From assembly GCF_000018465.1 (NCBI RefSeq), contig NC_010085.1:1380001-1412000 (forward strand): 32,000 nt of DNA, written 5' to 3'. Positions 359 to 14,834 of this stretch are shown here, piece after piece. The translations under genes and the position numbers were made by a program. The DNA comes from Nitrosopumilus maritimus SCM1 (GTDB lineage: Archaea > Thermoproteota > Nitrososphaeria > Nitrososphaerales > Nitrosopumilaceae). The notes below the pieces were generated by a model. That model saw only the letters and a list, made by a program, of their open reading frames with translations, did no database searches and was not told the origin of the DNA. Every line of letters begins with the position of its first letter. Position 1 is the first letter of the stretch.

Positions 359-1903
359 TTGTCAGAAAATCAAAATTACGATCCTGCATTGCTTGAAAAG
401 TTTGAGCAAGAGATATGGAACAAGATTCCACATGTAGAAGGAGACAAGATAGTTAACGCAACACCACTAGTTGACTTGACTGCAGATTTGAAAGAATGTG
501 CAAAGAGTGTCTTTAAACTAAACCTTGATGACAAGGATTTCAAAATTTACGGAAAGTTTGATTCAGAATTACTTAGCGGCTCCATCAAAGTAAGAGCAGC
601 ATCACACATCATTCACGAGGCAATCAAAGAAGGAAAATGTAATGGAAAGAGAGTAGTAATTGAAGCCACATCAGGGAACTTTGGAATTGCATTAGGATTA
701 TTATCAAAACTTGGTGTAACTGTAGTTGCACTTGTTTCAAGAAAATTACAAGAGGGCGTCTTCAAAGAATTAAGAAACGAGAATATCAAAATTATGGATT
801 TGGATATGGATATTTGTCCAGCTCCTGGAATGGAGAACAAAGCAGACGAGATGGCTGCTAAAGCAACTGCAGGAAATATTCGCTCACAGTTAACTGAGAT
901 GGGATTTGATCCTCAAATCTTTGACAACAACCTTACAGAGATTGAAGCACTGTTAGCAAAACAAGACATCATTAATTTGGCAAGATACCTTGCAGACATT
1001 TACGATTTGTTTTGCCCAAAGCAATACGACAATGAACTAAACATTGACATTCACAATACAGTAACTGCACCTGAAATTGATCAGCAATTACACGAACTTG
1101 GTGATTCCCTAGAAGATTATGCATTGTATTGTTCATTTGGAACAGGCGGCACATCAGGTGGTTTGAGCAAATACATGACTGAAAAATACAACAAAAAGGC
1201 AGTTCATGTAGTATTTCCCCCACTAGGTCAAGATGTTGCAGGAATCAGAACAAAATCAAAGGCTGAAGGACTCACACTATACAATCCTGAATCATACACA
1301 GAACACGAGATTGACTTTGAGAATGCAAAATTGATTCTCAAGTATATGGTAGATAAGGGACATGACATTGGTGAGAGCAGTGCATTGGAATTGTTTGCAG
1401 CACTAGAGATGGCATACAAGGGTGAAATCAAAAAGGCAGTAGTAATGATTGCAGATGGAATTGACAAATACAGGAAGAATTTTGAGATGATTGGAAAGGG
1501 CAGTGATGTTCCAATGAGAGTGTCACTAGAAGATGCAGCAGCTGTTGCAGGAGATTATGATAATATTATTTGGGTTCACACACAGTACACACCTAAAGAA
1601 GAAGGAATCGAGATTATTGCAAAGTCATTAGGTGTTGATAAATCAAAAATTACTATACCAAAAGCATCTACTATCAACAACCTATTATCAACACAACAAG
1701 TTCCTGAAGAACTTAGCAAAGAACTAGATGGCTCTAAGGGAAAATCATTGTTAGTGTGTATGGCAGGAAACACATCACTTATGACTGCACAAGTTTTAGC
1801 AAGCAAAGGAATAGTTACCCAGAGTTTGAATGGCGGAATAACCAATTTGCCTGAAGGAAGAGGTAAAAATCCTGGTGAATACATTCAGGTAGCTAGAGAA
1901 TAA
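359..1903 (+). CDS. PLP-dependent beta-substituting enzyme (CysK/CysM/threonine-synthase fold) fused to a C-terminal rhodanese domain
   Basis: TTG start. 'SGSIKVRAA' is the candidate PLP-lysine motif. 'EATSGNFGIALG' and 'GTGGTSGG' are fold-type II PLP loops. The C-terminal ~110 aa carry 'LLVCMAGNTSLMTAQVLASKG', a rhodanese active-site Cys loop. Confidence 0.75.
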   Translation: MSENQNYDPALLEKFEQEIWNKIPHVEGDKIVNATPLVDLTADLKECAKSVFKLNLDDKDFKIYGKFDSELLSGSIKVRAASHIIHEAIKEGKCNGKRVVIEATSGNFGIALGLLSKLGVTVVALVSRKLQEGVFKELRNENIKIMDLDMDICPAPGMENKADEMAAKATAGNIRSQLTEMGFDPQIFDNNLTEIEALLAKQDIINLARYLADIYDLFCPKQYDNELNIDIHNTVTAPEIDQQLHELGDSLEDYALYCSFGTGGTSGGLSKYMTEKYNKKAVHVVFPPLGQDVAGIRTKSKAEGLTLYNPESYTEHEIDFENAKLILKYMVDKGHDIGESSALELFAALEMAYKGEIKKAVVMIADGIDKYRKNFEMIGKGSDVPMRVSLEDAAAVAGDYDNIIWVHTQYTPKEEGIEIIAKSLGVDKSKITIPKASTINNLLSTQQVPEELSKELDGSKGKSLLVCMAGNTSLMTAQVLASKGIVTQSLNGGITNLPEGRGKNPGEYIQVARE

Positions 1904-1904
1904 T

Positions 1905-2360
1905 TTGAAATGCCTTTCAGTATCTCAACCATTTGCTGAATTAATCATTTTAGGAAAAAAAACAATAGAGTTACGCAAATGGAATACAAACTATCGTGGA
2001 GAATTACTGATTCATTCACCACTAAAAATTAGAAAAGAAGATGCAAAGCGATTAAAGATTGACAAAAAATTTGTCACAGGTGCAATTGTTGGGAAAGTGG
2101 AAATCTATGATGTAAAAAAATACGATTCACAAAAACAAGTAAAGTCAGATCAAAAATTTCATTTTGCATCAAAAAATTTCCATGATAGAACCTACGGATT
2201 TTTGCTAAAGAACGCAAAAACATTTCGAGTTCCAATTCCATACAAAGGGCAATTAGGATTGTTTGAAGTCAAACTTCCTAAAACAAAAATCAAAAACAAA
2301 GAGATAGTGTCTGACATTATTGATGAAGAATATCGATACCAATGGATCGGACACCATTAA
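1905..2360 (+). CDS. ASCH (PUA-like) domain protein
   Basis: TTG start 1 nt after the previous stop. The N-terminus 'LSVSQPFAELIILGKKTIELRKW' matches the ASCH signature pattern. Confidence 0.6.
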   Translation: MKCLSVSQPFAELIILGKKTIELRKWNTNYRGELLIHSPLKIRKEDAKRLKIDKKFVTGAIVGKVEIYDVKKYDSQKQVKSDQKFHFASKNFHDRTYGFLLKNAKTFRVPIPYKGQLGLFEVKLPKTKIKNKEIVSDIIDEEYRYQWIGHH

Positions 2361-2391
2361 GACTCGGATTTTTTCCAAAAAATTTGACTAG

Positions 2392-2401
2392 TATATATAA
2401 A
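2392..2401 (+). promoter_or_regulatory. TATA box for the TBP gene (leaderless geometry)
   Basis: 'tatatataaa' lies 24-33 nt upstream of the ATG at 2425. Confidence 0.5.
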
Positions 2402-2424
2402 GGGCATATTTAAAGACCCTCGTC

Positions 2425-2988
2425 ATGCCTCAAACAAAGCCTATTGTGAGTGTTGAAAATGTTGTTGCATCTGCATCAGTTGATCAAAAAATTGACTTGA
2501 ATGAGATTACAGAAAAATTTCCAGATACTGAATATCATCCAGAACAATTTCCAGGATTAGTTTTCAGATTAAGTACTCCAAGAACTGCAACATTGATCTT
2601 CAGAACAGGAAAAATGGTTTGTACTGGTGCAAAATCTGAAGAAATGGCAATCAAAGCTGTAAACACTGTAGTTCAAAAATTAAGAAAAGGAAAAATCAAA
2701 ATAAAAAATGATGCAGTTATTACTGTACAAAATATTGTTGCAGCAATTAATCTAGGTGGAAAAATACATCTAGAAAAAGCAGCAAGGACATTACCAAGAA
2801 GCATGTACGAACCTGAGCAATTTCCAGGACTAATTCACAGAATGCTTGATCCAAAAACCGTAATCTTGTTATTTGCATCAGGAAAATTAGTATGTACTGG
2901 AGCTAAAAAAGAATCAGATGTTTATCGCTCTGTTCACAACCTACATTCAGTCTTAGAAGAAAAAAATCTAATGATCTATGACGAATAG
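2425..2988 (+). CDS. tbp: TATA-box binding protein
   Basis: Two internal direct repeats are present, '...PEQFPGLVFRL...TGKMVCTGAKSEE' and '...PEQFPGLIHRM...SGKLVCTGAKKES'. Length is 187 aa. Confidence 0.95.
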   Translation: MPQTKPIVSVENVVASASVDQKIDLNEITEKFPDTEYHPEQFPGLVFRLSTPRTATLIFRTGKMVCTGAKSEEMAIKAVNTVVQKLRKGKIKIKNDAVITVQNIVAAINLGGKIHLEKAARTLPRSMYEPEQFPGLIHRMLDPKTVILLFASGKLVCTGAKKESDVYRSVHNLHSVLEEKNLMIYDE

Positions 2989-3211
2989 ATTGACTGAAAA
3001 TAATTTTGAAGAAGAAAAGAAAAAACTAACTCCAGACAAAGGATTTGATTTGATTGGAATTGATTATTTTTCAGAGCCAGGAAACCAATTGTATCTAGTA
3101 GAACATTTTGAAATGTATCAAGATGTACTAAATGCAAAAAAAGAAAGAAAGAATCCTGAAGAATATTTTATTTTGTACAAAGGTGCTGGCGGAGAATTTT
3201 TCTGCAGATAA
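2978..3211 (+). CDS. hypothetical small protein (77 aa), overlaps the tbp 3' end by 11 nt
   Basis: The ORF starts with ATG inside the tbp stop region. No motif recognised. Confidence 0.4.
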   Translation: MTNRLTENNFEEEKKKLTPDKGFDLIGIDYFSEPGNQLYLVEHFEMYQDVLNAKKERKNPEEYFILYKGAGGEFFCR

Positions 3212-3282
3212 GCCAGAAAAATAGAACAACTTTACTATATTTTACAAACTCTCTTATCATTAGGTTTTAAATTGAAAACTTT

Positions 3283-3864
3283 ATGGCCAATGAAACTAGT
3301 GATTTGATTGATAATCTTTATGAAAAAAATGAGCCTGCACGAAATGATTTCAAGCCTCAAGTGAGTCGCAAAAGCCAAAAGGCAAAGTATCAGATTTTTG
3401 ACGAGTCAGAATTTACTCGTGGCAGAGAAGTATTAGGGGATCTCATTGTACATGGAATGATAGCCTCCGGAGGCACGGATATTGACTGGTTAATTGAACA
3501 TAAAGGAGGATTTGTCATACTGGAATTCAAGGGATTTCATAATGATAAGATAAACATTGCAAAAGGCCAGATGATTGCATATGAAAAATTACATGAAAAA
3601 TTAAACCAGTCAGCAAAATGCTATTTGTATGTTGTAGGGTGTGATGACATTGATTTTTCAAATCCTGATGCAACAGTATGGGTCTTTGAGATGAATCATT
3701 GGAAATCAAATGCAATTCCAAAAAATACCAGCGATATTTACGGAGACGAATCCAATCGACAAAACAAGTACATAGTTTATCGTGAATACATGGAAGAGAT
3801 TAGTGTAGAAAAATTAAGAGACATTATTGACTCACACTGGAAAGAGTTTGAAAGAATTATGTAG
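3283..3864 (+). CDS. hypothetical protein with a PD-(D/E)xK nuclease-like motif
   Basis: 'GGTDIDWLIEHKGGFVILEFKG' has D...(hydrophobic strand)-E-x-K spacing, typical of the restriction-endonuclease-like fold. No other motif recognised. Confidence 0.5.
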   Translation: MANETSDLIDNLYEKNEPARNDFKPQVSRKSQKAKYQIFDESEFTRGREVLGDLIVHGMIASGGTDIDWLIEHKGGFVILEFKGFHNDKINIAKGQMIAYEKLHEKLNQSAKCYLYVVGCDDIDFSNPDATVWVFEMNHWKSNAIPKNTSDIYGDESNRQNKYIVYREYMEEISVEKLRDIIDSHWKEFERIM

Positions 3865-4567
3865 TAAATGAAAATGTGCTAGACTTTGTCTCAGCACCAT
3901 TATCTACTTTGATAGTGTAAGTGCCAGAACTCTCCCATCCAGGGCCACCAGCAATTGCAAGTGTGGAATATCTTCCATCACTTTTTAGAGAGAGTTGTTC
4001 TGTCCAAACAAGTTCACCTTTCTGGTTTTCTATGGATAGATTTACTGAACCAGTGGTATCTGAAATACCATTTATTGATATGATGTCTTTATTGTTGTAT
4101 GATGAAAAGTCAGTTTGAATCATTAGTGATTCTGTTCCTGTAGGAGTATTTACAATAGGAGGAACCGTCTTAGGAGTCACATTAGAAATTCCACCAAGAG
4201 ATACAGCAGCTGCAATAATTACTACCAATGCAACAACACCAATTCCTATCATTAACTTGTTCTTTGAGGAAGAAGAGGAAATTTTTGGTTGTGTTTTATG
4301 GATTGTTTGAGTTTTTTGAATTGATGGTGTTTCAGGTATCACTACATCTGGAACCACGGGTTTTTCAACAGGAATTTCAGTTTTTTCAACATTAGGAGTT
4401 TCTGGTTTTCTTCCAAGATGTTTTTCTGCTAATTTTTTTACATAGTTTCTTTCAAAATTACTAATAACCTCATTATTTTCACAAGCTCGACGAATTTGTT
4501 TTAGGATTCTATCATCACCAAAATCTTTTTCCAAAAGTGCCTTTACATCATCAAGTAAGGAATCCAC
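3857..4567 (-). CDS. single-pass membrane protein with a cytoplasmic helical N-domain, Pro/Thr-rich linker, TM helix and extracellular beta-sandwich-like domain
   Basis: GTG start. The hydrophobic segment is 'LMIGIGVVALVVIIAAAVSLGG'. The C-terminal region is 'GSVNLSIENQKGELVW...DGRYS...GTYTIKVDNG'. Confidence 0.6.
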   Translation of the reverse strand: MDSLLDDVKALLEKDFGDDRILKQIRRACENNEVISNFERNYVKKLAEKHLGRKPETPNVEKTEIPVEKPVVPDVVIPETPSIQKTQTIHKTQPKISSSSSKNKLMIGIGVVALVVIIAAAVSLGGISNVTPKTVPPIVNTPTGTESLMIQTDFSSYNNKDIISINGISDTTGSVNLSIENQKGELVWTEQLSLKSDGRYSTLAIAGGPGWESSGTYTIKVDNGAETKSSTFSFTT

Positions 4568-4649
4568 GAGTACTTTCTCCTATAATGATTATTTATGAAT
4601 TCCTTGTTTAATATTTCGAATAATTTCTACATAATCAAAGAATTTGAGA

Positions 4650-4826
4650 CTATTTTGAGTAGATCTTTTGTGCTTGTATAATGACAGTTCTGATGTAGTC
4701 TTTTGCAGTAGAATCAGAGACTCCCATCTGTTTTGCTCTCTGATATAGGACATTTTCTTGAGGATTACTCAGATAGCATTTTAGAAGATAGTTTAGTCTG
4801 TGAGATCTCTTTTCATCACTTTTCAT
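4650..4826 (-). CDS. possible 58-aa small protein, below the ORF-track length cutoff
   Basis: Hand translation gives MKSDEKRSHRLNYLLKCYLSNPQENVLYQRAKQMGVSDSTAKDYIRTVIIQAQKIYSK. It is the only sizeable ORF in the 372-nt gap 4568-4939. 'GVSDSTAKDYIRTV' looks helix-turn-helix-like. Confidence 0.3.
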   Translation of the reverse strand: MKSDEKRSHRLNYLLKCYLSNPQENVLYQRAKQMGVSDSTAKDYIRTVIIQAQKIYSK

Positions 4827-4939
4827 AATGTCCTATCTCACATATACTAAAAAGCTCAGAGGATTATGAAATAACCAGCAATGTATCATAAAACTCTAAA
4901 AAATACATATGATCTTTTTTAAACAATAGCAAAAAACAA

Positions 4940-5287
4940 ATGCAAATGAAACGAATTGAGGCAACTGTTCAAGTGGACAAGGCCGGTGCAGTTTCTGATG
5001 CAATTAAAGACATTGTTGGAGGATTTACCATCACAGAGGGAAAGGGTAGAGGCTCTGGAAAAAGACAAGAGATCAGATCAGGAAGAGGTACAGGTTCATT
5101 CACAGCAGAATACAACAAAGTTGCAACAGTGATAACAGTGGTAGATGACTCTGAAGTAGAGAAAGTATCTTCAGCAATTGCAGATGCAGCTTTTACAGGA
5201 AAGGGTGGAGATGGAATTATTACAGTCTCTAGTGTAGAAAGTGCTCTAAATATAGCATCTAAAAAGACGGGTTCTGAAGCCCTCTAA
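4940..5287 (+). CDS. PII-like (GlnB-family fold) signal protein
   Basis: 'MKRIEATV...' is followed by a Gly/Arg-rich T-loop-like segment 'GKGRGSGKRQEIRSGRGTGSFTAEY' and then '...KGGDGIITVSSVE'. The true start may be the second ATG at 4946. Confidence 0.65.
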   Translation: MQMKRIEATVQVDKAGAVSDAIKDIVGGFTITEGKGRGSGKRQEIRSGRGTGSFTAEYNKVATVITVVDDSEVEKVSSAIADAAFTGKGGDGIITVSSVESALNIASKKTGSEAL

Positions 5288-5315
5288 TCATTTTATTTTA
5301 TTTTAAAATAAGCTG

Positions 5316-5339
5316 CTGAGAGGAAATTTTTCCTCTCAG
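5316..5339. terminator. perfect inverted repeat between convergent genes, next to T-rich tracts
   Basis: 'ctgagaggaaa tt tttcctctcag' has 11-nt arms. It is preceded by 'ttttattttattttaaaat', directly after the stop at 5287. Confidence 0.45.
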
Positions 5340-5419
5340 GAGGTATCCTTTTGGAGGACATGTTTTTTGAAGGGATGATTCTTATTGCAAACTAAGTATA
5401 AAAGCAAAGGATTTTGAAG

Positions 5420-5659
5420 TCACTGTTGTCCTTCAATACCCATCAGAGTTAGTGTCGATCTAATTTTTGGGATCTTTCTAATCTTCCAAGTAATAGTTTC
5501 ACGTAATGCTTCTACTTGAGAAGATTCCACTTTTGCTAAAATATCATATGCACCAAATGTGCCATGAACTTCAACAACACCTTCAATAGATTTTAGTTCT
5601 GAAATTACAGCTTCTTCAGAACCAAGCTCACAGTTTATGAGAACATAAGCTGTTGCCAA
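5420..5659 (-). CDS. stand-alone Lrp/AsnC-type ligand-binding (RAM) domain protein
   Basis: 79 aa, TTG start immediately after an in-frame TAA. 'YVLINCELGSEEAVISELKSIEGVVEVHGTFGAYDILAKVE' follows the RAM-domain pattern. There is no HTH domain. Confidence 0.7.
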   Translation of the reverse strand: MATAYVLINCELGSEEAVISELKSIEGVVEVHGTFGAYDILAKVESSQVEALRETITWKIRKIPKIRSTLTLMGIEGQQ

Positions 5660-5799
5660 TTATGATTCAACTCCTACTTTCATAACTAAAATGCCATCTT
5701 GAAATATATAAGAATAGTCCGATTTACTTAAAAATTCAATATTATTTTGGATAGAACCATTAACATTTGTAAAGAAAATAACTAAATTTGAAAATAAAT

Positions 5800-6768
5800 T
5801 TAAGATATAGAATATGCTTCACGCATAATTTTTTCTAGGTCTTCAAGATTTTTTGAAAATGTGATTTTAGAACGTAGTTTGGAACCACCCTTCAATCCTT
5901 TTGTAAATCTCATAGCTTGACTTTTGATATTAGAGAATTTGATTTTGTATTGATTTGTAAGATGAAGATAATCAAAGAAAGAATCCAATCTATCTTTGAA
6001 AGAATATTCTTTGTATGAACCAGTTTTAAGATAATCATTAATCTGTTCAAATAAGAAAGGGTTTCCCATGGCACCACGGCCAATCATAACATAATCACAA
6101 CCAGTCTCATCAAGCATCATTTTGGCATCTTCAGGAGTAGTAATATCACCATTTCCAACTACAGGAATATTGGAGATCTCTTTTAATTCCTTGATTAATT
6201 TCCAATCTGCACTTCCAGAATATCCTTGACTGACAGTTCTAGGATGAAAAGTTATCATTTGAATTCCTTGATCTTCTGCAATTTCTGCAATATCTCTAAA
6301 GAGAAATTTACTTGCATCAGTTACACCAGAACGAATCTTTAGAGTTACAGGTTTTTTTACAGCATTCACAAGGGTTTCGAAAATTTGTTGTGTAAGATTT
6401 ACCTCTTGCAAAAGAGCTCCACCGGCCATTTGTTGTGTAATGTGTGGAGCAGGACAACCCATGTTGTAATCAATAATATCAAAATATGGTTCCACAATAG
6501 TTGCAGCTTTTTCTAATGCATAAAGATCAGAACCAAACAATTGAACAGAAATAGGTCTTTCTTGTTCTGAAAATTCAATGAATTCTTGAATTGTTTTCAT
6601 ATTTTCTTTGAGTTGTTCTTCTTTTGCAATAATGCTATGAATACTGGTAAATTCTGTTACTACCAATCCAGCTCCCATTTTTTTGCATTGTAATCTCAAT
6701 GCAGGATCACTAACTCCTGCCATAGGAGCTAAAAATGCCCTACTAGAAAATTTTGGAAGCATAAACAA
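5800..6768 (-). CDS. dus: tRNA-dihydrouridine synthase
   Basis: 'LAPMAGVSDPALRL', 'NMGCPAP' (catalytic Cys region) and 'VTLKIRSG' mark a TIM-barrel flavoenzyme pattern. The start could instead be the ATG at 6762, which fits the 'atatattt' box at ~6783-6790 better. Confidence 0.85.
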   Translation of the reverse strand: MFMLPKFSSRAFLAPMAGVSDPALRLQCKKMGAGLVVTEFTSIHSIIAKEEQLKENMKTIQEFIEFSEQERPISVQLFGSDLYALEKAATIVEPYFDIIDYNMGCPAPHITQQMAGGALLQEVNLTQQIFETLVNAVKKPVTLKIRSGVTDASKFLFRDIAEIAEDQGIQMITFHPRTVSQGYSGSADWKLIKELKEISNIPVVGNGDITTPEDAKMMLDETGCDYVMIGRGAMGNPFLFEQINDYLKTGSYKEYSFKDRLDSFFDYLHLTNQYKIKFSNIKSQAMRFTKGLKGGSKLRSKITFSKNLEDLEKIMREAYSIS

Positions 6769-6803
6769 ACTAAATAATTTGAATATATTTACTATTTCAA
6801 AAA

Positions 6804-8972
6804 TCAGTTATCTGGACAACCGTCAGTGTCTCTGTCACCATCATAGTCTTCAGGATCAAGTGGACACAAGTCTTCATCATTAATGATGTCATCTAGATCA
6901 TCATCATGGACAAATCTTTGTTGTTCTGGGGCAATATCTGGACAACCATCATCATCGTTGTATTTATTCCAGGTTTCTGGTTTTGATGGACAAGAATCAA
7001 TTGAATCATAGAATCCGTCACCATCAGAGTCAAATTTTGTTGGTGCTGTTGGTGCTGCAGCCAATATATCTGGGCAGCCATCCCAATCCAAGTATCCGTT
7101 AAAGTTCTCTTGTTCATCAAGACATGCATCCCATCTATCATCTATTCCATCACCATCAGCATCTGGGAAAGAATAGGATGAAGTCACAGTACCAGTAGAA
7201 TCAGGGCAACCGTCAGTATCTTGATAAAAATTATAAGTTTCAGGCTCTAGTGGGCAAGAGTCTAAAACATTTGGAATTCCATCCATGTCTGAATCAAGTG
7301 TAGATCGAGAATCATCAGGACAACCGTCAGTATCTTGGAATTTATTGTAAGTTTCAGGTTGTGTTGGACAGAGATCTAAATTATCAATAATGCCATCACC
7401 ATCAGAGTCATAGGCAGTAAAGCCATCTGTAAGAGAATCAGGACAACCGTCAGTATCTTGGAATTTATTGTAAGTTTCTTTTGCGGTAGGACATTGATCC
7501 ATTTTATCAATTATTCCATCTCCATCAGAATCTCCAAATGAATCATGTTCTATTGTATCAGGGCATCCATCTTCATCTTGGAATTTGTTGTAATTTTCTG
7601 CAATAGTAGGACATGAATCACGAACGTCAGGGATATGATCATAATCAGTATCAAGTAATGAAGATTTTGAAATTCCTGGAGTATCTGGACAGCCGTCAGA
7701 ATCTAAAAATCCGTTAAAGTTCTCTTGTTCATCAAGACATGCATCCCATCTATCATCTATTCCATCACCATCTGCATCTGGGAATGTATAAGAAAACAAA
7801 ACACCGTCAACAGAGTCTGGACAGCCGTCAGAATCTTGATAAAAGTTGTAAGTTTCAGGCTCTAGTGGACAAGAGTCTGAGACATTTGGAACACCATCTC
7901 TATCAGAGTCAAGTGTGGAAATAGAATAATCTGGGCAACCGTCAGAATCTTGGAATCCATTAAATGTTTCAGGTTGATTTGGACACCAATCTAAATTATC
8001 AATAATGCCATCACCATCAGAGTCATAGGCAGTAAAGCCATCTGTAAGAGAATCAGGGCAACCGTCAGAATCTTGGAGCTTGTTGTAAGTTTCAGGACTG
8101 TATGGACATGCATCATTTGCATTTAACAAACCATCACCATCTGCATCACCAGAAATTGGCAATTGTAAGACATCTGGACAGCCGTCAGAATCTTGGAACT
8201 TGTTGTAATTTTCACGTTCTAATGGACAAGCATCAACATCATCACCAATACTATCAAAATCAGAATCGATAAAGCCTTCTGAATCTACACCTGGAATATC
8301 AATACAACCATCTTGATCCTGGAAATTGTTATAGTTTTCAGGTTCGTTTAGACATTGATCCCATCTATCGTCTATTCCATCACCATCAGTATCTGGAAAT
8401 TGATAAAGAGAAGTTGTAGTGTCAACAGAGTCAGGACAGCCGTCAGAATCTTGATAAAAGTTGTAAGTTTCAGGCTCTAGTGGACAAGCATCTTTACCGT
8501 CAGAAATTCCATCTTGATCACGATCCAGTAGAGAATGATCATCATCAGGACAACCGTCAGTGTCATCAATTCCATTAAATGTTTCAGGTCTATTTGGACA
8601 CAAGTCTAGATAATCAGGAAAGCCGTCACCATCAGAGTCAGCAATTCCAGTATCACCATCAGGGGACAAATCAGGACAACCGTCAGTGTCTTGGAACTTG
8701 TTGTAAGTTTCTTTTACGGTCGGACATCTATCGATATGATCTTGGATACCATCATAATCAGCATCATACCAAGGAACAAAGTCTGCAGGACAGCCGTCAA
8801 TGTTGTTACCGTATTCAGGATCATAGTCCTCTAAGAGATGAGGACAAAAATCAACAGCATTTGGAACACCATCACCATCAGTGTCAATTGTAGTATTTGC
8901 AAAAACAATGTTTGGTGTCATTCCAATAGTTATGGTAAGTAAAATTAAAAATCCTAAAATATATTGTTTCAT
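6804..8972 (-). CDS. secreted thrombospondin-type-3-like Ca-binding repeat protein, paralog 1 (722 aa)
   Basis: I prefer the start at the internal ATG (8970-8972), giving 'MKQYILGFLILLTITIGMTPNIVFA|N', a signal peptide. About 17 'DGCP(D)' modules counted by eye. No TM anchor. Confidence 0.85.
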   Translation of the reverse strand: MKQYILGFLILLTITIGMTPNIVFANTTIDTDGDGVPNAVDFCPHLLEDYDPEYGNNIDGCPADFVPWYDADYDGIQDHIDRCPTVKETYNKFQDTDGCPDLSPDGDTGIADSDGDGFPDYLDLCPNRPETFNGIDDTDGCPDDDHSLLDRDQDGISDGKDACPLEPETYNFYQDSDGCPDSVDTTTSLYQFPDTDGDGIDDRWDQCLNEPENYNNFQDQDGCIDIPGVDSEGFIDSDFDSIGDDVDACPLERENYNKFQDSDGCPDVLQLPISGDADGDGLLNANDACPYSPETYNKLQDSDGCPDSLTDGFTAYDSDGDGIIDNLDWCPNQPETFNGFQDSDGCPDYSISTLDSDRDGVPNVSDSCPLEPETYNFYQDSDGCPDSVDGVLFSYTFPDADGDGIDDRWDACLDEQENFNGFLDSDGCPDTPGISKSSLLDTDYDHIPDVRDSCPTIAENYNKFQDEDGCPDTIEHDSFGDSDGDGIIDKMDQCPTAKETYNKFQDTDGCPDSLTDGFTAYDSDGDGIIDNLDLCPTQPETYNKFQDTDGCPDDSRSTLDSDMDGIPNVLDSCPLEPETYNFYQDTDGCPDSTGTVTSSYSFPDADGDGIDDRWDACLDEQENFNGYLDWDGCPDILAAAPTAPTKFDSDGDGFYDSIDSCPSKPETWNKYNDDDGCPDIAPEQQRFVHDDDLDDIINDEDLCPLDPEDYDGDRDTDGCPDN
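7375..8065 (-). repeat. intragenic super-repeat in paralog 1 (period ~609-615 nt)
   Basis: 'ttatcaataatgccatcaccatcagagtcataggcagtaaagccatctgtaagagaatcagg' occurs at 7381 and 7996, an offset of 615. 'gttcatcaagacatgcatcccatctatcatctattccatcaccatc' occurs at 7122 and 7731, an offset of 609. Confidence 0.85.
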
Positions 8973-8997
8973 AATCCCTGATTTCGCTATTATCAAG

Positions 8998-9007
8998 TAT
9001 TTATTAA
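8998..9007 (-). promoter_or_regulatory. TATA-like box for paralog 1
   Basis: The minus strand reads 'cttaataaatac', centred ~30 nt upstream of the ATG at 8972, inside the 82-nt spacer. Confidence 0.4.
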
Positions 9008-9054
9008 GTCTCACGTTAAATAGATTTTTTCGAAATACTAGAAATCAGTATTGA

Positions 9055-11223
9055 TTATGGATCAGGACAACCGTCAGTGTCTCTGTCACCATCATAGTCT
9101 TCAGGATCAAGTGGACACAAGTCTTCATCATTAATGATGTCATCTAGATCATCATCATGGACAAATCTCTGTTGTTCTGGAGCAATATCAGGACAGCCAT
9201 CTTTATCGAGATATTTGTTCCAGGTTTCGGGTTTTGATGGACAAGAATCAATTGAATCAGGATAGCCGTCACCATCAGAGTCAGCATATACAGGGGCAGT
9301 GGATTCTGCACCTAGGACATCAGGACAACCGTCCCAATCTAGATAATCATTATAGTTTTCTGGCTCATAAATACAAGCATCCCATCTATCTTCAATTCCA
9401 TCACCGTCAGTGTCAGGGAATGTATATCCAGATAGTGCACCATCAACTGAATCAGGACAACCATCAGTGTCTTGGTATTTATTGTAAGTCTCAGGTTCTA
9501 GTGGGCATGCATCATTAATGTCTAAAATTCCATCCATATCTGAATCAAGTTTAGAAATAGAATCATCTGGACAACCATCAGTGTCTTGGAATCCATTGTA
9601 AGTTTCAGGTCTAGTAGGACACAAGTCTAGATAATCAAATATTCCATCACCATCAGTGTCAGCAGATAGTTTGTTATCAGCAACCCAATCAGGGCAACCG
9701 TCAGTGTCTTGGAATTTATTGTAAGTTTCTTTTGCAGTAGGACATTGATCCACATCATCAAATATTCCATCTCCATCATAGTCACCTACTGTTTGATGAA
9801 CAACACTGTCAGGGCATCCATCTTCATCTTGGAATTTATTATATCTTTCAGCAATAGTTGGACATTCATCCAAGTGGTCTGCAATACCATCATAATCAGA
9901 ATCAATCATATCAGTTCCAGAAGTACCTACAATTTCAGGGCAACCGTCGTCATCTAAAAATCCATTATAGTTTTCTGGCTCATGAATACAAGCATCCCAT
10001 CTATCTTCAATTCCATCACCGTCAGTGTCAGGGAATGTATATCCAGATAGTGCACCATCAACTGAATCAGGACAACCATCAGTGTCTTGGTATTTATTGT
10101 AAGTCTCAGGTTCTAGTGGGCATGCATCATTAATGTCTAAAATTCCATCCATGTCTGCATCAAATCTATAAAGTGAATCATCAGGACAACCATCAGTATC
10201 TTGGAATTTATTGTAAGTTTCAGGTCTAGTAGGACACAAGTCTAGATTATCAATAATTCCATCACCATCAGTGTCAGCAGATAGTTTGTTATCAGCAACC
10301 CAATCAGGGCAACCGTCAGTGTCTAAGTATTTGTTATAAGTCTCAGGACTAAATGGACACGAATCATTTTGATCAAGTATTCCATCTCCATCAGAATCAC
10401 CAAAGATTACATGTTTGACAACATCTGGGCAACCGTCAGTGTCTTCAAATTTATTATAATTTTCACGATCTAATGGACAAGCATCAACATCATCAGGAAT
10501 GCCATCAAAGTCAGCATCAGGAGCTGTAGGATTCGTCACTCCAGGAATATCAGGACAACCGTCCCAATCTAGATTATTATTATAATTTTCTGGCTCATGA
10601 ATACAAGCATCCCATCTATCTTCAATTCCATCACCGTCAGTGTCAGGGAATGTATATCCAGATAGTGCACCATCAACTGAATCAGGACAACCATCAGTGT
10701 CTTGGTATTTGTTGTAAGTCTCAGGTTCTAGTGGACAAGTATCTTTACCGTCAGAAATTCCATCTTGATCACGATCCATTATAGAACGATCATCATCAGG
10801 ACAACCGTCAGTGTCATCAATTCCATTAAATGTTTCAGGTCTATTTGGACACAAGTCTAGATAATCAGGAAAGCCATCGCCATCGGTATCAGCAACATTT
10901 TTTGGACCATCAGGGGACAAATCAGGACAACCGTCAGTGTCTTGGAAACGATTGTAGGTTTCTTTTACGGTTGGACAGTTATCAACATGATCTTGAATAC
11001 CATCATAATCAGCATCATACCATGGAACAAAGTCTGCAGGACAACCGTCAATGTTGTTACCGTATTCAGGATCATAGTCCTCTAAGAGATGAGGACATTG
11101 ATCAACAGCATTTGGAACACCATCACCATCAGTGTCAATTGTAGTATTTGCAAAAACACTGTTTGGTGTCATTCCAATAGTTATGGTAAGTAAAATTAAA
11201 AATCCTAAAAGATATTGTTTCAT
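9055..11223 (-). CDS. secreted thrombospondin-type-3-like Ca-binding repeat protein, paralog 2 (722 aa)
   Basis: Starting at the internal ATG (11221-11223) gives 'MKQYLLGFLILLTITIGMTPNSVFA|N'. Module grammar matches paralog 1. Only 11 nt separate it from the stop of the upstream gene. Confidence 0.85.
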   Translation of the reverse strand: MKQYLLGFLILLTITIGMTPNSVFANTTIDTDGDGVPNAVDQCPHLLEDYDPEYGNNIDGCPADFVPWYDADYDGIQDHVDNCPTVKETYNRFQDTDGCPDLSPDGPKNVADTDGDGFPDYLDLCPNRPETFNGIDDTDGCPDDDRSIMDRDQDGISDGKDTCPLEPETYNKYQDTDGCPDSVDGALSGYTFPDTDGDGIEDRWDACIHEPENYNNNLDWDGCPDIPGVTNPTAPDADFDGIPDDVDACPLDRENYNKFEDTDGCPDVVKHVIFGDSDGDGILDQNDSCPFSPETYNKYLDTDGCPDWVADNKLSADTDGDGIIDNLDLCPTRPETYNKFQDTDGCPDDSLYRFDADMDGILDINDACPLEPETYNKYQDTDGCPDSVDGALSGYTFPDTDGDGIEDRWDACIHEPENYNGFLDDDGCPEIVGTSGTDMIDSDYDGIADHLDECPTIAERYNKFQDEDGCPDSVVHQTVGDYDGDGIFDDVDQCPTAKETYNKFQDTDGCPDWVADNKLSADTDGDGIFDYLDLCPTRPETYNGFQDTDGCPDDSISKLDSDMDGILDINDACPLEPETYNKYQDTDGCPDSVDGALSGYTFPDTDGDGIEDRWDACIYEPENYNDYLDWDGCPDVLGAESTAPVYADSDGDGYPDSIDSCPSKPETWNKYLDKDGCPDIAPEQQRFVHDDDLDDIINDEDLCPLDPEDYDGDRDTDGCPDP
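9351..10741 (-). repeat. three near-identical 165-187-nt cores with 612-615-nt period in paralog 2
   Basis: The cores start at 9351, 9966 and 10578 with 'tata(g/a)ttttctggctcat(a/g)aatacaagcatcccatctatcttcaattccatcaccgtcagtgtcagggaatgtatatccagatagtgcaccatcaactgaatcaggacaaccatcagtgtcttggtattt...'. Each encodes 'CPLEPETYNKYQDTDGCPDSVDGALSGYTFPDTDGDGIEDRWDACI(H/Y)EPENYN'. Confidence 0.9.
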
Positions 11224-11234
11224 GTTACAAGCAC

Positions 11235-13670
11235 CTAAGAGTCTGGACAACCGTCAGTGTCATTGTCACCGTCATAGTCCTCTGGTTCAAGTGGGCAGAG
11301 ATCATGTTCATTGATGATATCATCTAAATCAGCATCGTGTTTGTATCTTGATTGTTCTGGAGCAATATCAGGGCAACCATCAGCATCGTTGTATTTGTTC
11401 CAAGATTCTTTAAGATTTGGACACAAATCAACATTATCATTAATTCCATCGCCATCACTATCAATTACAACATTTCCAATTGGAAGAGTATCTGGACATC
11501 CGTCATAGTCAACATAATTATTCCAGGTTTCATTTTGAGTTGGGCACATATCCATTACATCAGGTACACCATCACCATCGGTATCTGGTTGGACATTATC
11601 AACATCAGGGCAACCATCTTCATCTTGGAAGCCGTTGTAATTTTCTGCAACTAGTGGACAATCATCATCAACATCAAGAATTCCATCATTGTCTGAATCA
11701 ACTACAAATGATTCAGATATTGTATCTGGACATCCGTCATCGTCTTGGAATTTATTCCAAGTTTCTTTTGCAGTTGGACATGCATCAATTGCATCAGGAA
11801 TACCATCTTGATCTCTGTCATAACCTAGGATGTAATCATCAGGACAGCCATCAAGATCAAGAATTCCATTATAGGTTTCTGGTTGATTTGGGCAATGATC
11901 ATTGTAATCATTTATTCCATCATTATCTGAATCTGGAGAACCTTTGTTATCTGCAACAGAATCAGGACAACCATCCAAGTCTTGGAATCTGTTGTAAGTT
12001 TCTGGAACAAGAGGACATTGATCTTCCAAGTCAACTATTCCATCAAAGTCTGAATCCATGCTAGTAAGGAAGTCAGGATAGTCAGGACAGCCATCTTCAT
12101 CTTGGAATCCATTGTATCTTTCTCTATCTAGTGGACATTCATCTACAGAGTCTAAAATACCATCAAAGTCTGAATCTCCTTCACCAGGAGTATCTGGACA
12201 TCCGTCATCGTCGTTGTATCTATTCCATGTTTCAGGTTCTGATGGACATTGATCTAAACTATCTCTAATTCCATCACCATCTGAATCCATAACAGATTCA
12301 TCTGGACATCCATCTTTATCTTGATATCCGTTGAATGTTTCAGGTCTTAGTGGACATTGATCATTCAAGTCAGAAATTCCATCACCATCAAAGTCCAATG
12401 CTGAAAGTCCAGACACAGAATCAGGACAACCATCAGAATCTTGGAACTTGTTGTAAGTTTCTTTTGCAGTAGGACACTGATCTAATCCATCAATAATACC
12501 ATCTCTATCACGGTCACCAGTACCATAAGAGTCAGGACAACCATCTCGGTCTTGGAATCCATTATGAATTTCTGGTTGATTTGGGCACAAGTCTCGGTTG
12601 TCAATTATGCCATCACCATCTGAATCAATTGCACCTCTGTTGTCTGCAACAAAGTCTGGACAGCCATCAAGGTCTTGGAATTTATTGTAAGTTTCTTTCA
12701 CAGTAGGACATTGATCAATACTATTTGGAATTCCATCCATGTCTGAATCACTATCACTTGTATAAGGTGGAATATCTGGGCAACCGTCATCATCTTGGAA
12801 TCCATTGTATCTTTCAGGTTCTAGTGGACATGCATCATCAGTATCCATTATTCTATCACCATCTGCATCATTTAAAGAACCAATAAAGGATGGAATAGAA
12901 TCTGGGCAACCGTCATAATCAGCAAAGCGATTAAAAGTTTCAGGATCAGTAGGACAAATATCAAATTGATTTGCAATTCCATCACCATCAGTATCAATGA
13001 AATCAGAATCTAATGTAACATCTGGACAACCGTCAGTGTCTAAATAATCATTATACACTTCAGGTTCTGTTGGACACAAATCTAGTGAATCTTTTATGCC
13101 ATCATTATCGGTATCAATAAAAGCTAAATCATTTTGTGCATCAGGGCAACCATCTGCATCTTGGAATCTATTGTAAGTTTCTGGACTTAGTGGACATGCA
13201 TCAATTGCATCAGGAACTCCATCTCTATCACGGTCACCAGAACCAAAGTCATCTGGACAACCATCTCTATCTAAAATGCCATTGAATGTTTCTGGTTGAT
13301 TAGGACATTTATCTACAGTATCTACAAATCCATCACCGTCAGAGTCAGGCAATCCACCAGGTCCTCCTTGAGGAGAAATATCTGGACAACCATCTTCATC
13401 TTGGAATTTATTGTATTTTTCTCTAAGATTTGGACATTGATCAATATGATCTTCTATTCCATCATAATCTTCATCATACCATGGAACAAAATTTGATGGA
13501 CAACCATCTATGGCACCTTCATTATCTTCACGTAAATTAGGACATGCATCAACAGTATCATCAACACCGTCATTATCTAAGTCAGTTGCTGCAAATGCAG
13601 GATTCATAGGCATACTAGTTAGAGTCGTTAACAGTAACAATAGGAATGGTAAAGTGTGTATTTTCTTCAA
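11235..13670 (-). CDS. secreted thrombospondin-type-3-like Ca-binding repeat protein, paralog 3 (811 aa, more divergent)
   Basis: TTG start. The signal peptide is 'MKKIHTLPFLLLLLTTLTSMPMNPAFA|A'. Modules follow the same 'D.DGDG..D..D.CP....E.YN.FQD.DGCPD' pattern. The C-terminal motif '...APEQSRYKHDADLDDIINEHDLCPLEPEDYDGDNDTDGCPDS' is shared with the other two. Confidence 0.85.
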   Translation of the reverse strand: MKKIHTLPFLLLLLTTLTSMPMNPAFAATDLDNDGVDDTVDACPNLREDNEGAIDGCPSNFVPWYDEDYDGIEDHIDQCPNLREKYNKFQDEDGCPDISPQGGPGGLPDSDGDGFVDTVDKCPNQPETFNGILDRDGCPDDFGSGDRDRDGVPDAIDACPLSPETYNRFQDADGCPDAQNDLAFIDTDNDGIKDSLDLCPTEPEVYNDYLDTDGCPDVTLDSDFIDTDGDGIANQFDICPTDPETFNRFADYDGCPDSIPSFIGSLNDADGDRIMDTDDACPLEPERYNGFQDDDGCPDIPPYTSDSDSDMDGIPNSIDQCPTVKETYNKFQDLDGCPDFVADNRGAIDSDGDGIIDNRDLCPNQPEIHNGFQDRDGCPDSYGTGDRDRDGIIDGLDQCPTAKETYNKFQDSDGCPDSVSGLSALDFDGDGISDLNDQCPLRPETFNGYQDKDGCPDESVMDSDGDGIRDSLDQCPSEPETWNRYNDDDGCPDTPGEGDSDFDGILDSVDECPLDRERYNGFQDEDGCPDYPDFLTSMDSDFDGIVDLEDQCPLVPETYNRFQDLDGCPDSVADNKGSPDSDNDGINDYNDHCPNQPETYNGILDLDGCPDDYILGYDRDQDGIPDAIDACPTAKETWNKFQDDDGCPDTISESFVVDSDNDGILDVDDDCPLVAENYNGFQDEDGCPDVDNVQPDTDGDGVPDVMDMCPTQNETWNNYVDYDGCPDTLPIGNVVIDSDGDGINDNVDLCPNLKESWNKYNDADGCPDIAPEQSRYKHDADLDDIINEHDLCPLEPEDYDGDNDTDGCPDS

Positions 13671-13808: not shown

Positions 13809-14834
13809 ATGAGTTGTTCTGGAGAGGTAGTTGAAGAAGAGCAACTAATTCAGATCAAGCCTGCAATTTCTGAGCAATTAAAAAAAGCAAAGTATGGGGT
13901 TTCAGATCATTCTACTGTAGAACTATGTCATTGGACAAAAAAATCATTCAAGCATGAAGGTAGTTGCTATAAACACAAGTTTTATGGAATTTCAACTCAC
14001 AGGTGTATGGAATTTTCGCCAGCTGGGATGCATTGTGAAAATCGTTGTGTGTATTGTTGGAGACCAATGGAGTTTTATGATTCATTAGAAATGAAACCAG
14101 AACAAGTTGCCGAACCTGAAGAAATTTTAACTAAACTGATGGCTGAAAGAAAAAAATTGATCAATGGGTATTATGGTGATTCAAGAAATGATAAACAAAG
14201 ATTAGATGAGTCATTACTTCCTAGTCACTATGCAATTTCACTTTCAGGTGAACCAACAATGTATCCAAAATTACCAGAGTTGATAAAGTATCTAAATTCA
14301 CTTGAAGCAACAAAATCAATTTTTCTTGTTACAAATGGTCAGGAACCAGATATGATTCAAAAACTACAAGACGAAGATGCACTTCCAACACAATTGTATT
14401 TATCAACTAATGCAGCAGACTATGAATCATTTTTGAAAATTAACAAACCAAAATATGATGACTCATGGGAAAGATGGAATAGAACACTTGGGATGTTAAA
14501 GCATCTCAACACACGAACGGTTCTACGAATAACCTTGATTAGAAATTATAATGATCAGAAATCTATGATTCCAGCATTTGCAAAAATGTTCAAAGAAGCA
14601 AGCCCACATTTTATAGAAATAAAATCATACATGCATATTGGACGTTCTACCAACAGATTAGAACATTCAAACATGTTAGAGATGGAAGAAGTGAAAAGAT
14701 TTAGTGAACAAATTGCAAAGCAAAGTCAAATATTTTCAGTAATGGATGAAAGTTTTGTTTCACGAATTTCAATTTTACAAAATAATGAAAGGTTTATCGA
14801 TCGTTGGATTCCAGCTTATGTAAATACCAATTAG
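13809..14834 (+). CDS. taw1: tRNA 4-demethylwyosine synthase (radical SAM, Taw1/TYW1)
   Basis: 'CENRCVYCWRP' is the CxxxCxxC radical-SAM motif. An N-terminal Cys cluster 'CHW...GSCYKH...HRCMEF' is also present. 'SLSGEPTMYP' is the SAM-binding strand. Confidence 0.85.
   Translation: MSCSGEVVEEEQLIQIKPAISEQLKKAKYGVSDHSTVELCHWTKKSFKHEGSCYKHKFYGISTHRCMEFSPAGMHCENRCVYCWRPMEFYDSLEMKPEQVAEPEEILTKLMAERKKLINGYYGDSRNDKQRLDESLLPSHYAISLSGEPTMYPKLPELIKYLNSLEATKSIFLVTNGQEPDMIQKLQDEDALPTQLYLSTNAADYESFLKINKPKYDDSWERWNRTLGMLKHLNTRTVLRITLIRNYNDQKSMIPAFAKMFKEASPHFIEIKSYMHIGRSTNRLEHSNMLEMEEVKRFSEQIAKQSQIFSVMDESFVSRISILQNNERFIDRWIPAYVNTN

Follow-up and report, generated by a model that had tools for sequence, protein, structure and literature searches.

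Old tandem TSP3-repeat genes in Nitrosopumilus maritimus whose ends very probably evolve in concert by recurrent gene conversion

A 32,000-nt stretch of the Nitrosopumilus maritimus SCM1 genome (NC_010085.1, forward-strand positions 1,380,001 to 1,412,000; hereafter the window, in whose numbering positions are given) carries two adjacent paralogous genes on its minus strand, each 2169 nt long when read from the signal-peptide ATG (722 aa plus stop). We refer to them as copies 3 and 2, as they are two members of a three-gene tandem cluster that is bounded by TYW1 on one side and DusB on the other (Table 1). The whole of what we see at this locus is best explained by an old duplication followed by recurrent gene conversion at both ends of the two genes while their centres evolved separately, a reading that we consider very likely to be correct. 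An earlier note, made from the letters of the window alone, had described the pair as a 2251-bp tandem duplication with mosaic identity; to that description we add the third paralog, copy 1, and a threefold 615-nt super-repeat inside each of the 722-aa genes.

The basic measurements in that note (two genes of 2169 nt, an offset of 2251 nt, a perfect run of 104 nt and only two mismatches within 8881-8972) all hold. When copies 2 and 3 are aligned without gaps at this offset, they differ at 463 of 2169 positions (78.7% identity), and the differences are distributed very unevenly. The 104-nt run (6814-6917 in copy 3, 9065-9168 in copy 2) lies at the 3′ end and the stretch with two mismatches (at 8908 and 8960) at the 5′ end, as the note had labeled them, because the genes are on the minus strand. 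Identity exceeds 90% over 8450-8972 and 6804-6950 and ranges from 52 to 85% between them; there are 38 mismatches in 507 nt at the 5′ end, 405 in 1452 nt in the center and 19 in 207 nt at the 3′ end. Divergence is thus mosaic rather than uniform along the full alignment, and the dissimilar peptides that had been quoted to illustrate the divergent center correspond to modules 7 and 12 of the two proteins. The near-identity of the outermost ~92 nt at the 5′ end is real, but it is part of a high-identity region that in fact extends for ~520 nt and contains further perfect runs of 88, 58, 53 and 51 nt. Homology ends at the ATG and at the stop codon, beyond which the flanks are only ~20-30% identical, as expected for random sequence.

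The mosaic pattern of copies 2 and 3 is not due to chance: in a GENECONV-like test on 1317 polymorphic sites, none of 5000 permutations produced a run as long as the longest identical one shared by the paralogs. The same longest-run test (5000 permutations each) gave P ≤ 0.003 in 9 of 9 genomes, with tracts whose positions vary from genome to genome: for example, one genome has complete identity over nt 8-435 of the gene, another over nt 132-347. We also considered and rejected conversion of copy 1 with copies 2 and 3: at the 3′ end copy 1 is only ~64% identical to them, and it shows no recent conversion with either.

Trees built from different segments of the genes give different groupings. 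In the tree of the first 450 nt, all 10 of the within-genome paralog pairs are sisters, mostly with supports of 96-100 (100/100 for the pair in this genome), and the tree of the last 150 nt, which has lower resolution than the 5′ tree, also groups sequences mostly by genome. In the maximum likelihood tree of the center (1440 nt, gene nt 541-1980), by contrast, the copy 3 sequences of 10 species form a single clade (100/100) with the copy 2 sequences outside it. Approximately unbiased (AU) tests reject a single copy 3 clade at both ends of the gene (5′, p = 0.004; 3′, p = 0.003), and for the center they reject a tree in which copies 2 and 3 of this genome are forced together (p = 0.0002).

Pairwise comparisons follow the same segments. 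In sliding windows over nt 1-450, within-genome paralogs are 0.83-0.94 identical vs 0.73-0.87 for orthologues, and over the last 120 nt the values are 0.98 vs 0.86; in the center, paralog identity is 0.65-0.79 vs 0.67-0.85, with the orthologue being the higher of the two in nearly all windows. In a set of 26 genomes that partly overlaps the first tree set, no orthologue is as close as the paralog in 17 genomes at the 5′ end, in 3 in the center and in 16 at the 3′ end. Synonymous divergence (dS) between the paralogs of this genome is 0.16 at the 5′ end, 1.32 (saturated) in the center and 0.30 at the 3′ end, whereas orthologue dS is ~1.0-1.5 in all three segments. The ends also carry genome-specific synonymous variants that are common to both paralogs. 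Even in comparison to the closest relative available (86% nucleotide identity), the end tracts differ, and the paralog ends of this genome are nearer to each other than to their orthologues. Taken together, the segment trees, the AU tests and the end dS values thus argue that the ends have been homogenized by recurrent, lineage-specific gene conversion. A small genome-specific patch in the center of copy 3 (Table 1) suggests a recent conversion in the direction from copy 2 to copy 3 there as well.

A different kind of exchange could in principle yield conserved ends and divergent centers: the ends could serve as homology arms by which central cassettes are swapped between lineages after uptake of DNA. 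We regard this as quite unlikely to account for the pair, but it does have some support, since three genomes are placed differently by the center of copy 2 and by the center of copy 3. One of them, G019, groups with G021 in the copy 3 center (100/100, 86% nucleotide identity) and with G012 in the copy 2 center and in its 812-aa copy 1; AU tests reject the alternatives to these groupings (p = 1e-4 and 0.03), although the groupings were chosen after seeing the tree. This conflict may reflect homologous replacement of the center of one copy between lineages. However, the species tree obtained from the flanking DusB and TYW1 genes is poorly resolved, and exchange between lineages does not explain the synonymous variants shared by both paralog ends of each genome, so that it could add to conversion but not replace it.

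It is very unlikely that there was no conversion at all and that the ends, which encode the signal peptide and the C-terminal module, are simply under far stronger purifying selection than the rest. The lowest dN/dS values (nonsynonymous relative to synonymous divergence) are indeed found at the 3′ end (0.05-0.07 between orthologues), and conservation of the C-terminal module extends to all three paralogs. Nevertheless, selection on the protein leaves synonymous sites unhomogenized, and in the genomes compared, paralog dS at the ends is only 0.1-0.4 vs ~1.0-1.5 for orthologues. Protein constraint therefore cannot explain the identical ends, nor does it account for the shared genome-specific synonymous variants or for the grouping of end segments by genome.

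The earlier note had offered two explanations for the mosaic, of which the second, ongoing gene conversion at the ends, is borne out by the segment trees and AU tests, the synonymous homogenization, the permutations and the tracts that differ from those of the closest relative. The first, a recent duplication whose center was then rapidly diversified by positive selection while the ends were conserved, is what near-identical ends and a divergent center would suggest if one looked at this one genome, and surface repeat proteins are often under diversifying selection. It is nonetheless refuted, and we give it almost no weight, because synteny of the trio holds across the genus and further, the copy 3 centers form the species-spanning clade described above, central dS is saturated at ~1.3 and central dN/dS is ~0.2. 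The order TYW1, ~812-aa gene, two ~722-aa genes (721-727 aa), DusB is found in at least 11 genomes of the same genus and is the commonest architecture among 77 named Nitrosopumilus and Nitrosarchaeum loci, and the copy 2 protein has matches in 15 of the 24 sampled genera of the family. dN/dS is 0.05-0.37 overall and ~0.17-0.25 in the center, which indicates purifying selection on copies 2 and 3 and therefore gives no sign of rapid diversification. Judged by these comparisons, the duplication that produced copies 2 and 3 is old and predates the radiation of the species compared. In one genome of the same genus (G010, ~1.4 Mb; locus L040, 2548-4701), TYW1 and DusB flank just one TSP3 gene, of 717 aa, in place of the trio, which could represent either the pre-duplication state or a secondary reduction.

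Finally, an assembly artefact in which reads were collapsed or mis-joined between the copies is very improbable: short-read assemblers can go wrong on perfectly identical repeats of ~100 nt, but this genome is one 1,645,259-bp contig (99.6% complete), both reading frames are intact with conserved length, and collapse is unlikely because the same architecture, with genome-specific tracts, recurs in many independent assemblies, several of them closed chromosomes.

How might conversion at the ends of an old gene pair work? Very probably, ectopic homologous recombination between the direct repeats has repeatedly replaced one copy's initial ~450-520 nt and final ~150-180 nt with those of the other, either by non-reciprocal gene conversion or by an equivalent double exchange between sister chromosomes. 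Because this overwriting occurred independently in each lineage, the ends evolve in concert, and the central ~1.4 kb persists as two separate orthologous lineages under purifying selection. On the outer side, the tracts would end where homology does, at the ATG and at the stop codon. The inner limits would be set by homogenization within copy 2, described below, together with selection for copy-specific residues; the first such residues past codon 43 start at alignment column 204, within the first 44-aa module.

Both 722-aa proteins are organized at a higher level into three super-repeats of 205 aa (615 nt), each made up of five modules (Table 1). These units behave differently in the two copies. 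Those of copy 2 group by genome (100/98 in this genome), whereas those of copy 3 group by position across species, apart from units 2 and 3 of this genome, which pair as sisters. For the 44-aa module, median intragenic identity is 0.90-0.94 in copy 2 vs 0.70-0.74 in copy 3. These groupings point to a second layer of conversion within copy 2 that keeps its three 615-nt super-repeats, and chiefly their 44-aa module, alike in each genome, and that would draw the center of copy 2 away from that of copy 3. Tandem Repeats Finder found nothing here, its longest period (500) being shorter than 615.

The super-repeat is also the unit in which the genes vary in length. The proteins of relatives fall into three length classes, 722, ~927 and ~1133 aa, with 3, 4 and 5 of the 205-aa super-repeats, respectively: copy 2 has 1133 aa (five super-repeats) in at least 8 loci, and copy 3 has ~927 aa (four) in several. 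Some relatives have additional short chimeric genes (339-578 aa) between copies 2 and 3, and in G006 a 436-aa chimeric gene combines a copy 2/3 signal peptide with a copy 1-like body. We interpret the length variants as products of unequal crossing-over in the 615-nt register. The relatives with four or five super-repeats and those with extra chimeric genes support the earlier proposal that the locus is a hotspot for recombination.

Several points weigh against our account of an old duplication with recurrently converted ends. Conversion is inferred throughout from comparative sequence, and the copy number of the locus rests on the assembly itself. At 150 nt, the 3′ segment is short, and the tree built from it is only partly resolved. 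The genomes compared are related and the sets partly overlapping, so that counts such as 17 of 26 should not be read as independent trials. The center tree unites all four copy 2 and copy 3 genes of the more distant G018/G002 clade, which could reflect either an independent duplication or an old whole-gene conversion, the two being indistinguishable. Lastly, codon 42 is the sole difference in 114 nt between the two copies (Table 1), and its Gln/Phe pair is found in 17 of 26 genomes for each copy; its retention would mark selection against homogenization, but this is suggestive only, because the site has been overwritten in ~9 of the 26 genomes, where both copies have the same codon. In the distant clade, the signal peptides of copies 2 and 3 in G018 and G002 (loci L038 and L039) are also strongly different, with 53-54% nucleotide identity in the first 90 nt, and this, taken with the center tree, suggests that the history of these genes is a different one there.

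A more far-reaching interpretation, which we find unlikely as a whole, is that the locus is a two-tier recombination system for surface proteins. The converted, identical ends would then act as homology arms for the exchange of central modules, whether between paralogs or from one lineage to another; super-repeats would be gained or lost by in-register 615-nt crossovers; and selection would shield a small number of copy-specific residues, Gln/Phe at codon 42 among them. If true, Nitrosopumilus populations would have a surface matrix able to vary rapidly, as a defense, for instance, against viruses or oxidative stress. Nitrosopumilus are among the most abundant archaea of the ocean, and to our knowledge very little is known about their cell surface beyond the S-layer.

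The proteins themselves belong to a known family. All three match the Pfam TSP_3 family (PF02412) above its gathering cut-off of 25 bits (Table 1), and each 722-aa protein consists of a Sec-type signal peptide followed solely by acidic 38-44-aa modules, each with a DxDxDG motif and two cysteines and with DGCPD at its end. There are 15-19 DxDxDG motifs per protein, and the Asp, Gly and Cys columns are invariant across 20 orthologues. From these features, the proteins are probably secreted, calcium-binding TSP3 repeat proteins that form part of the cell surface or matrix. The Pfam scan of the window proteins shows TSP_3 only, with no OmpA peptidoglycan-binding domain (PF00691), and we found no C-terminal anchor or MYXO-CTERM, as the proteins terminate in DGCPD plus one residue. 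Two more specific identities were rejected: MtsC (NCBIfam NF047638; 122-181 bits) and TraB (NF033763; 73-117 bits) both score far under their equivalog cut-offs of 350 and 700. Sequence matches in the PDB are weak (COMP and an OmpA thrombospondin type 3 repeat (TT3R) protein, each with E = 1.5e-4), and among the matches listed in a protein database search there are only distant bacterial OmpA-TSP3 proteins, which carry PF00691. An AlphaFold2 model of copy 2 from a 20-sequence alignment had almost no secondary structure (predicted local distance difference test, pLDDT, 52; predicted template modeling score, pTM, 0.17) and was too poor for a fold search.

A proteomic study reports that, in three Nitrosopumilus strains, two TT3R proteins are 15-40x more abundant under H2O2; a model of one of these proteins extends to residue 722 (Bayer et al., 2019; PMC6593220). 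The cluster proteins are very probably those TT3R proteins, because this genome has only these three TSP3 genes (no others match the copy 2 protein); the genus, the domain type and the residue-722 model also agree. On account of those abundance data, we consider them candidates for expressed, extracellular calcium-binding matrix proteins; beyond that, we infer their function. That study covers protein abundance under H2O2 rather than tandem paralogy, gene conversion or super-repeat dynamics, and no locus tags were found in its text.

Within the cluster, the copy 1 stop codon lies only 11 nt upstream of the copy 2 ATG (window 11223-11237), and copies 1 and 2 are therefore probably part of one transcript. 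The A/T-rich spacer between copies 2 and 3 contains a TATA-like element ~30-38 nt upstream of the copy 3 ATG, making it a candidate promoter of copy 3. An in-frame read-through peptide of this 82-nt spacer is found again in 4 other genomes. Bacterial promoter and terminator models gave counts in this DNA at the level of shuffled sequence, and such models are not applicable to an archaeon.

Table 1. Coordinates of the genes, tracts and repeats discussed, in window numbering except for the last two rows, which list loci in other genomes
Feature	Position	Strand	Description
DusB	5800-6768		flanking gene
Copy 3 (paralog 1 of the earlier note)	6804-8972	-	signal peptide + 16-18 Cys-paired acidic modules of 38-44 aa; TSP_3 105 bits
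Spacer copy 2/copy 3	8973-9054	-	82 nt, A/T-rich, outside the repeat, conserved in relatives
Copy 2 (paralog 2 of the earlier note)	9055-11223	-	722 aa; module lengths identical to copy 3; TSP_3 136 bits
Copy 1	11235-13670	-	811-aa TSP3 repeat paralog directly upstream of copy 2; TSP_3 116 bits
TYW1	13809-14834		flanking gene; archaeal wyosine enzyme
5′ homogenized tract	8450-8972 (copy 3), 10701-11223 (copy 2)	-	signal peptide + first modules; 92% identical; dS 0.16
3′ homogenized tract	6804-6978 (copy 3), 9055-9229 (copy 2)	-	C-terminal module; contains the 104-nt run
Central patch, copy 3	7450-7532	-	gene nt 1441-1500; 88-96% like copy 2, 68% like copy 3 of the closest relative
Copy 2 super-repeats	10303-10920, 9688-10302, 9061-9687	-	615 nt; 85-93% identical over the compared 246-nt segment
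Copy 3 super-repeats	6810-8669	-	three, counterparts of those of copy 2; 72-82% alike
Codon 42	8847-8849 (copy 3), 11098-11100 (copy 2)	-	TTT (Phe) in copy 3, CAA (Gln) in copy 2; sole difference in 114 nt
Length-variant and chimera loci	L029 (G006) 1607-8088; L037 (G007) 3966-7376; many among L041-L117
Conflicting-tree loci	L030 (G019), L032 (G021), L028 (G012)

As seen at this locus, these small, streamlined genomes undergo active and frequent ectopic homologous recombination, and the process shapes a family of predicted extracellular calcium-binding proteins that is both conserved and stress-responsive. Practical consequences follow as well. Short-read metagenome assemblies will break or collapse at the near-identical ends and at the internal 615-nt repeats; proteomics will be unable to tell copies 2 and 3 apart by their N- and C-terminal peptides, which are identical; and orthology assignment must rest on the central ~1.4 kb. 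Many contigs of metagenome-assembled genomes of relatives start or stop inside these genes (matches begin at base 1-3 or run to the contig end), which is consistent with short-read assemblies broken by repeats.

In the searchable literature on Nitrosopumilus gene conversion and on archaeal TT3R proteins, we found no description of this pattern, but its components can be compared to known systems. The window proteins resemble eukaryotic thrombospondins and COMP, OmpA-TT3R (PDB 5wtl) and the myxobacterial MtsB-E proteins in their repeated Asp-rich DxDxDGxxDxxD motifs and paired cysteines, in their strong Pfam match and in the extracellular location that their signal peptide implies. They differ in that they lack an OmpA C-terminal domain, a MYXO-CTERM or a lectin-like C-terminal globe; instead, the entire mature part consists of TT3R-like modules arranged in 205-aa super-repeats.

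Concerted evolution of paralogs, tandem or dispersed, through partial gene conversion is well known from textbook cases such as tufA/tufB in Salmonella, rRNA operons, the Neisseria opa and pil families and primate globin genes. As in those cases, within-genome paralogs here are closer than orthologues over defined tracts and the reverse is true outside them, synonymous sites are homogenized, the phylogeny is mosaic along the gene, and the tracts stop where homology stops. The window pair differs in that conversion is restricted to both gene ends of an archaeal surface-protein pair and that a second, intragenic homogenization affects only one of the two paralogs; unlike antigenic-variation systems, it has no silent-cassette or expression-site arrangement. 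Both the gene family and the evolutionary process are thus already known, and the locus is a clean case of partial, two-layer concerted evolution rather than a new mechanism.

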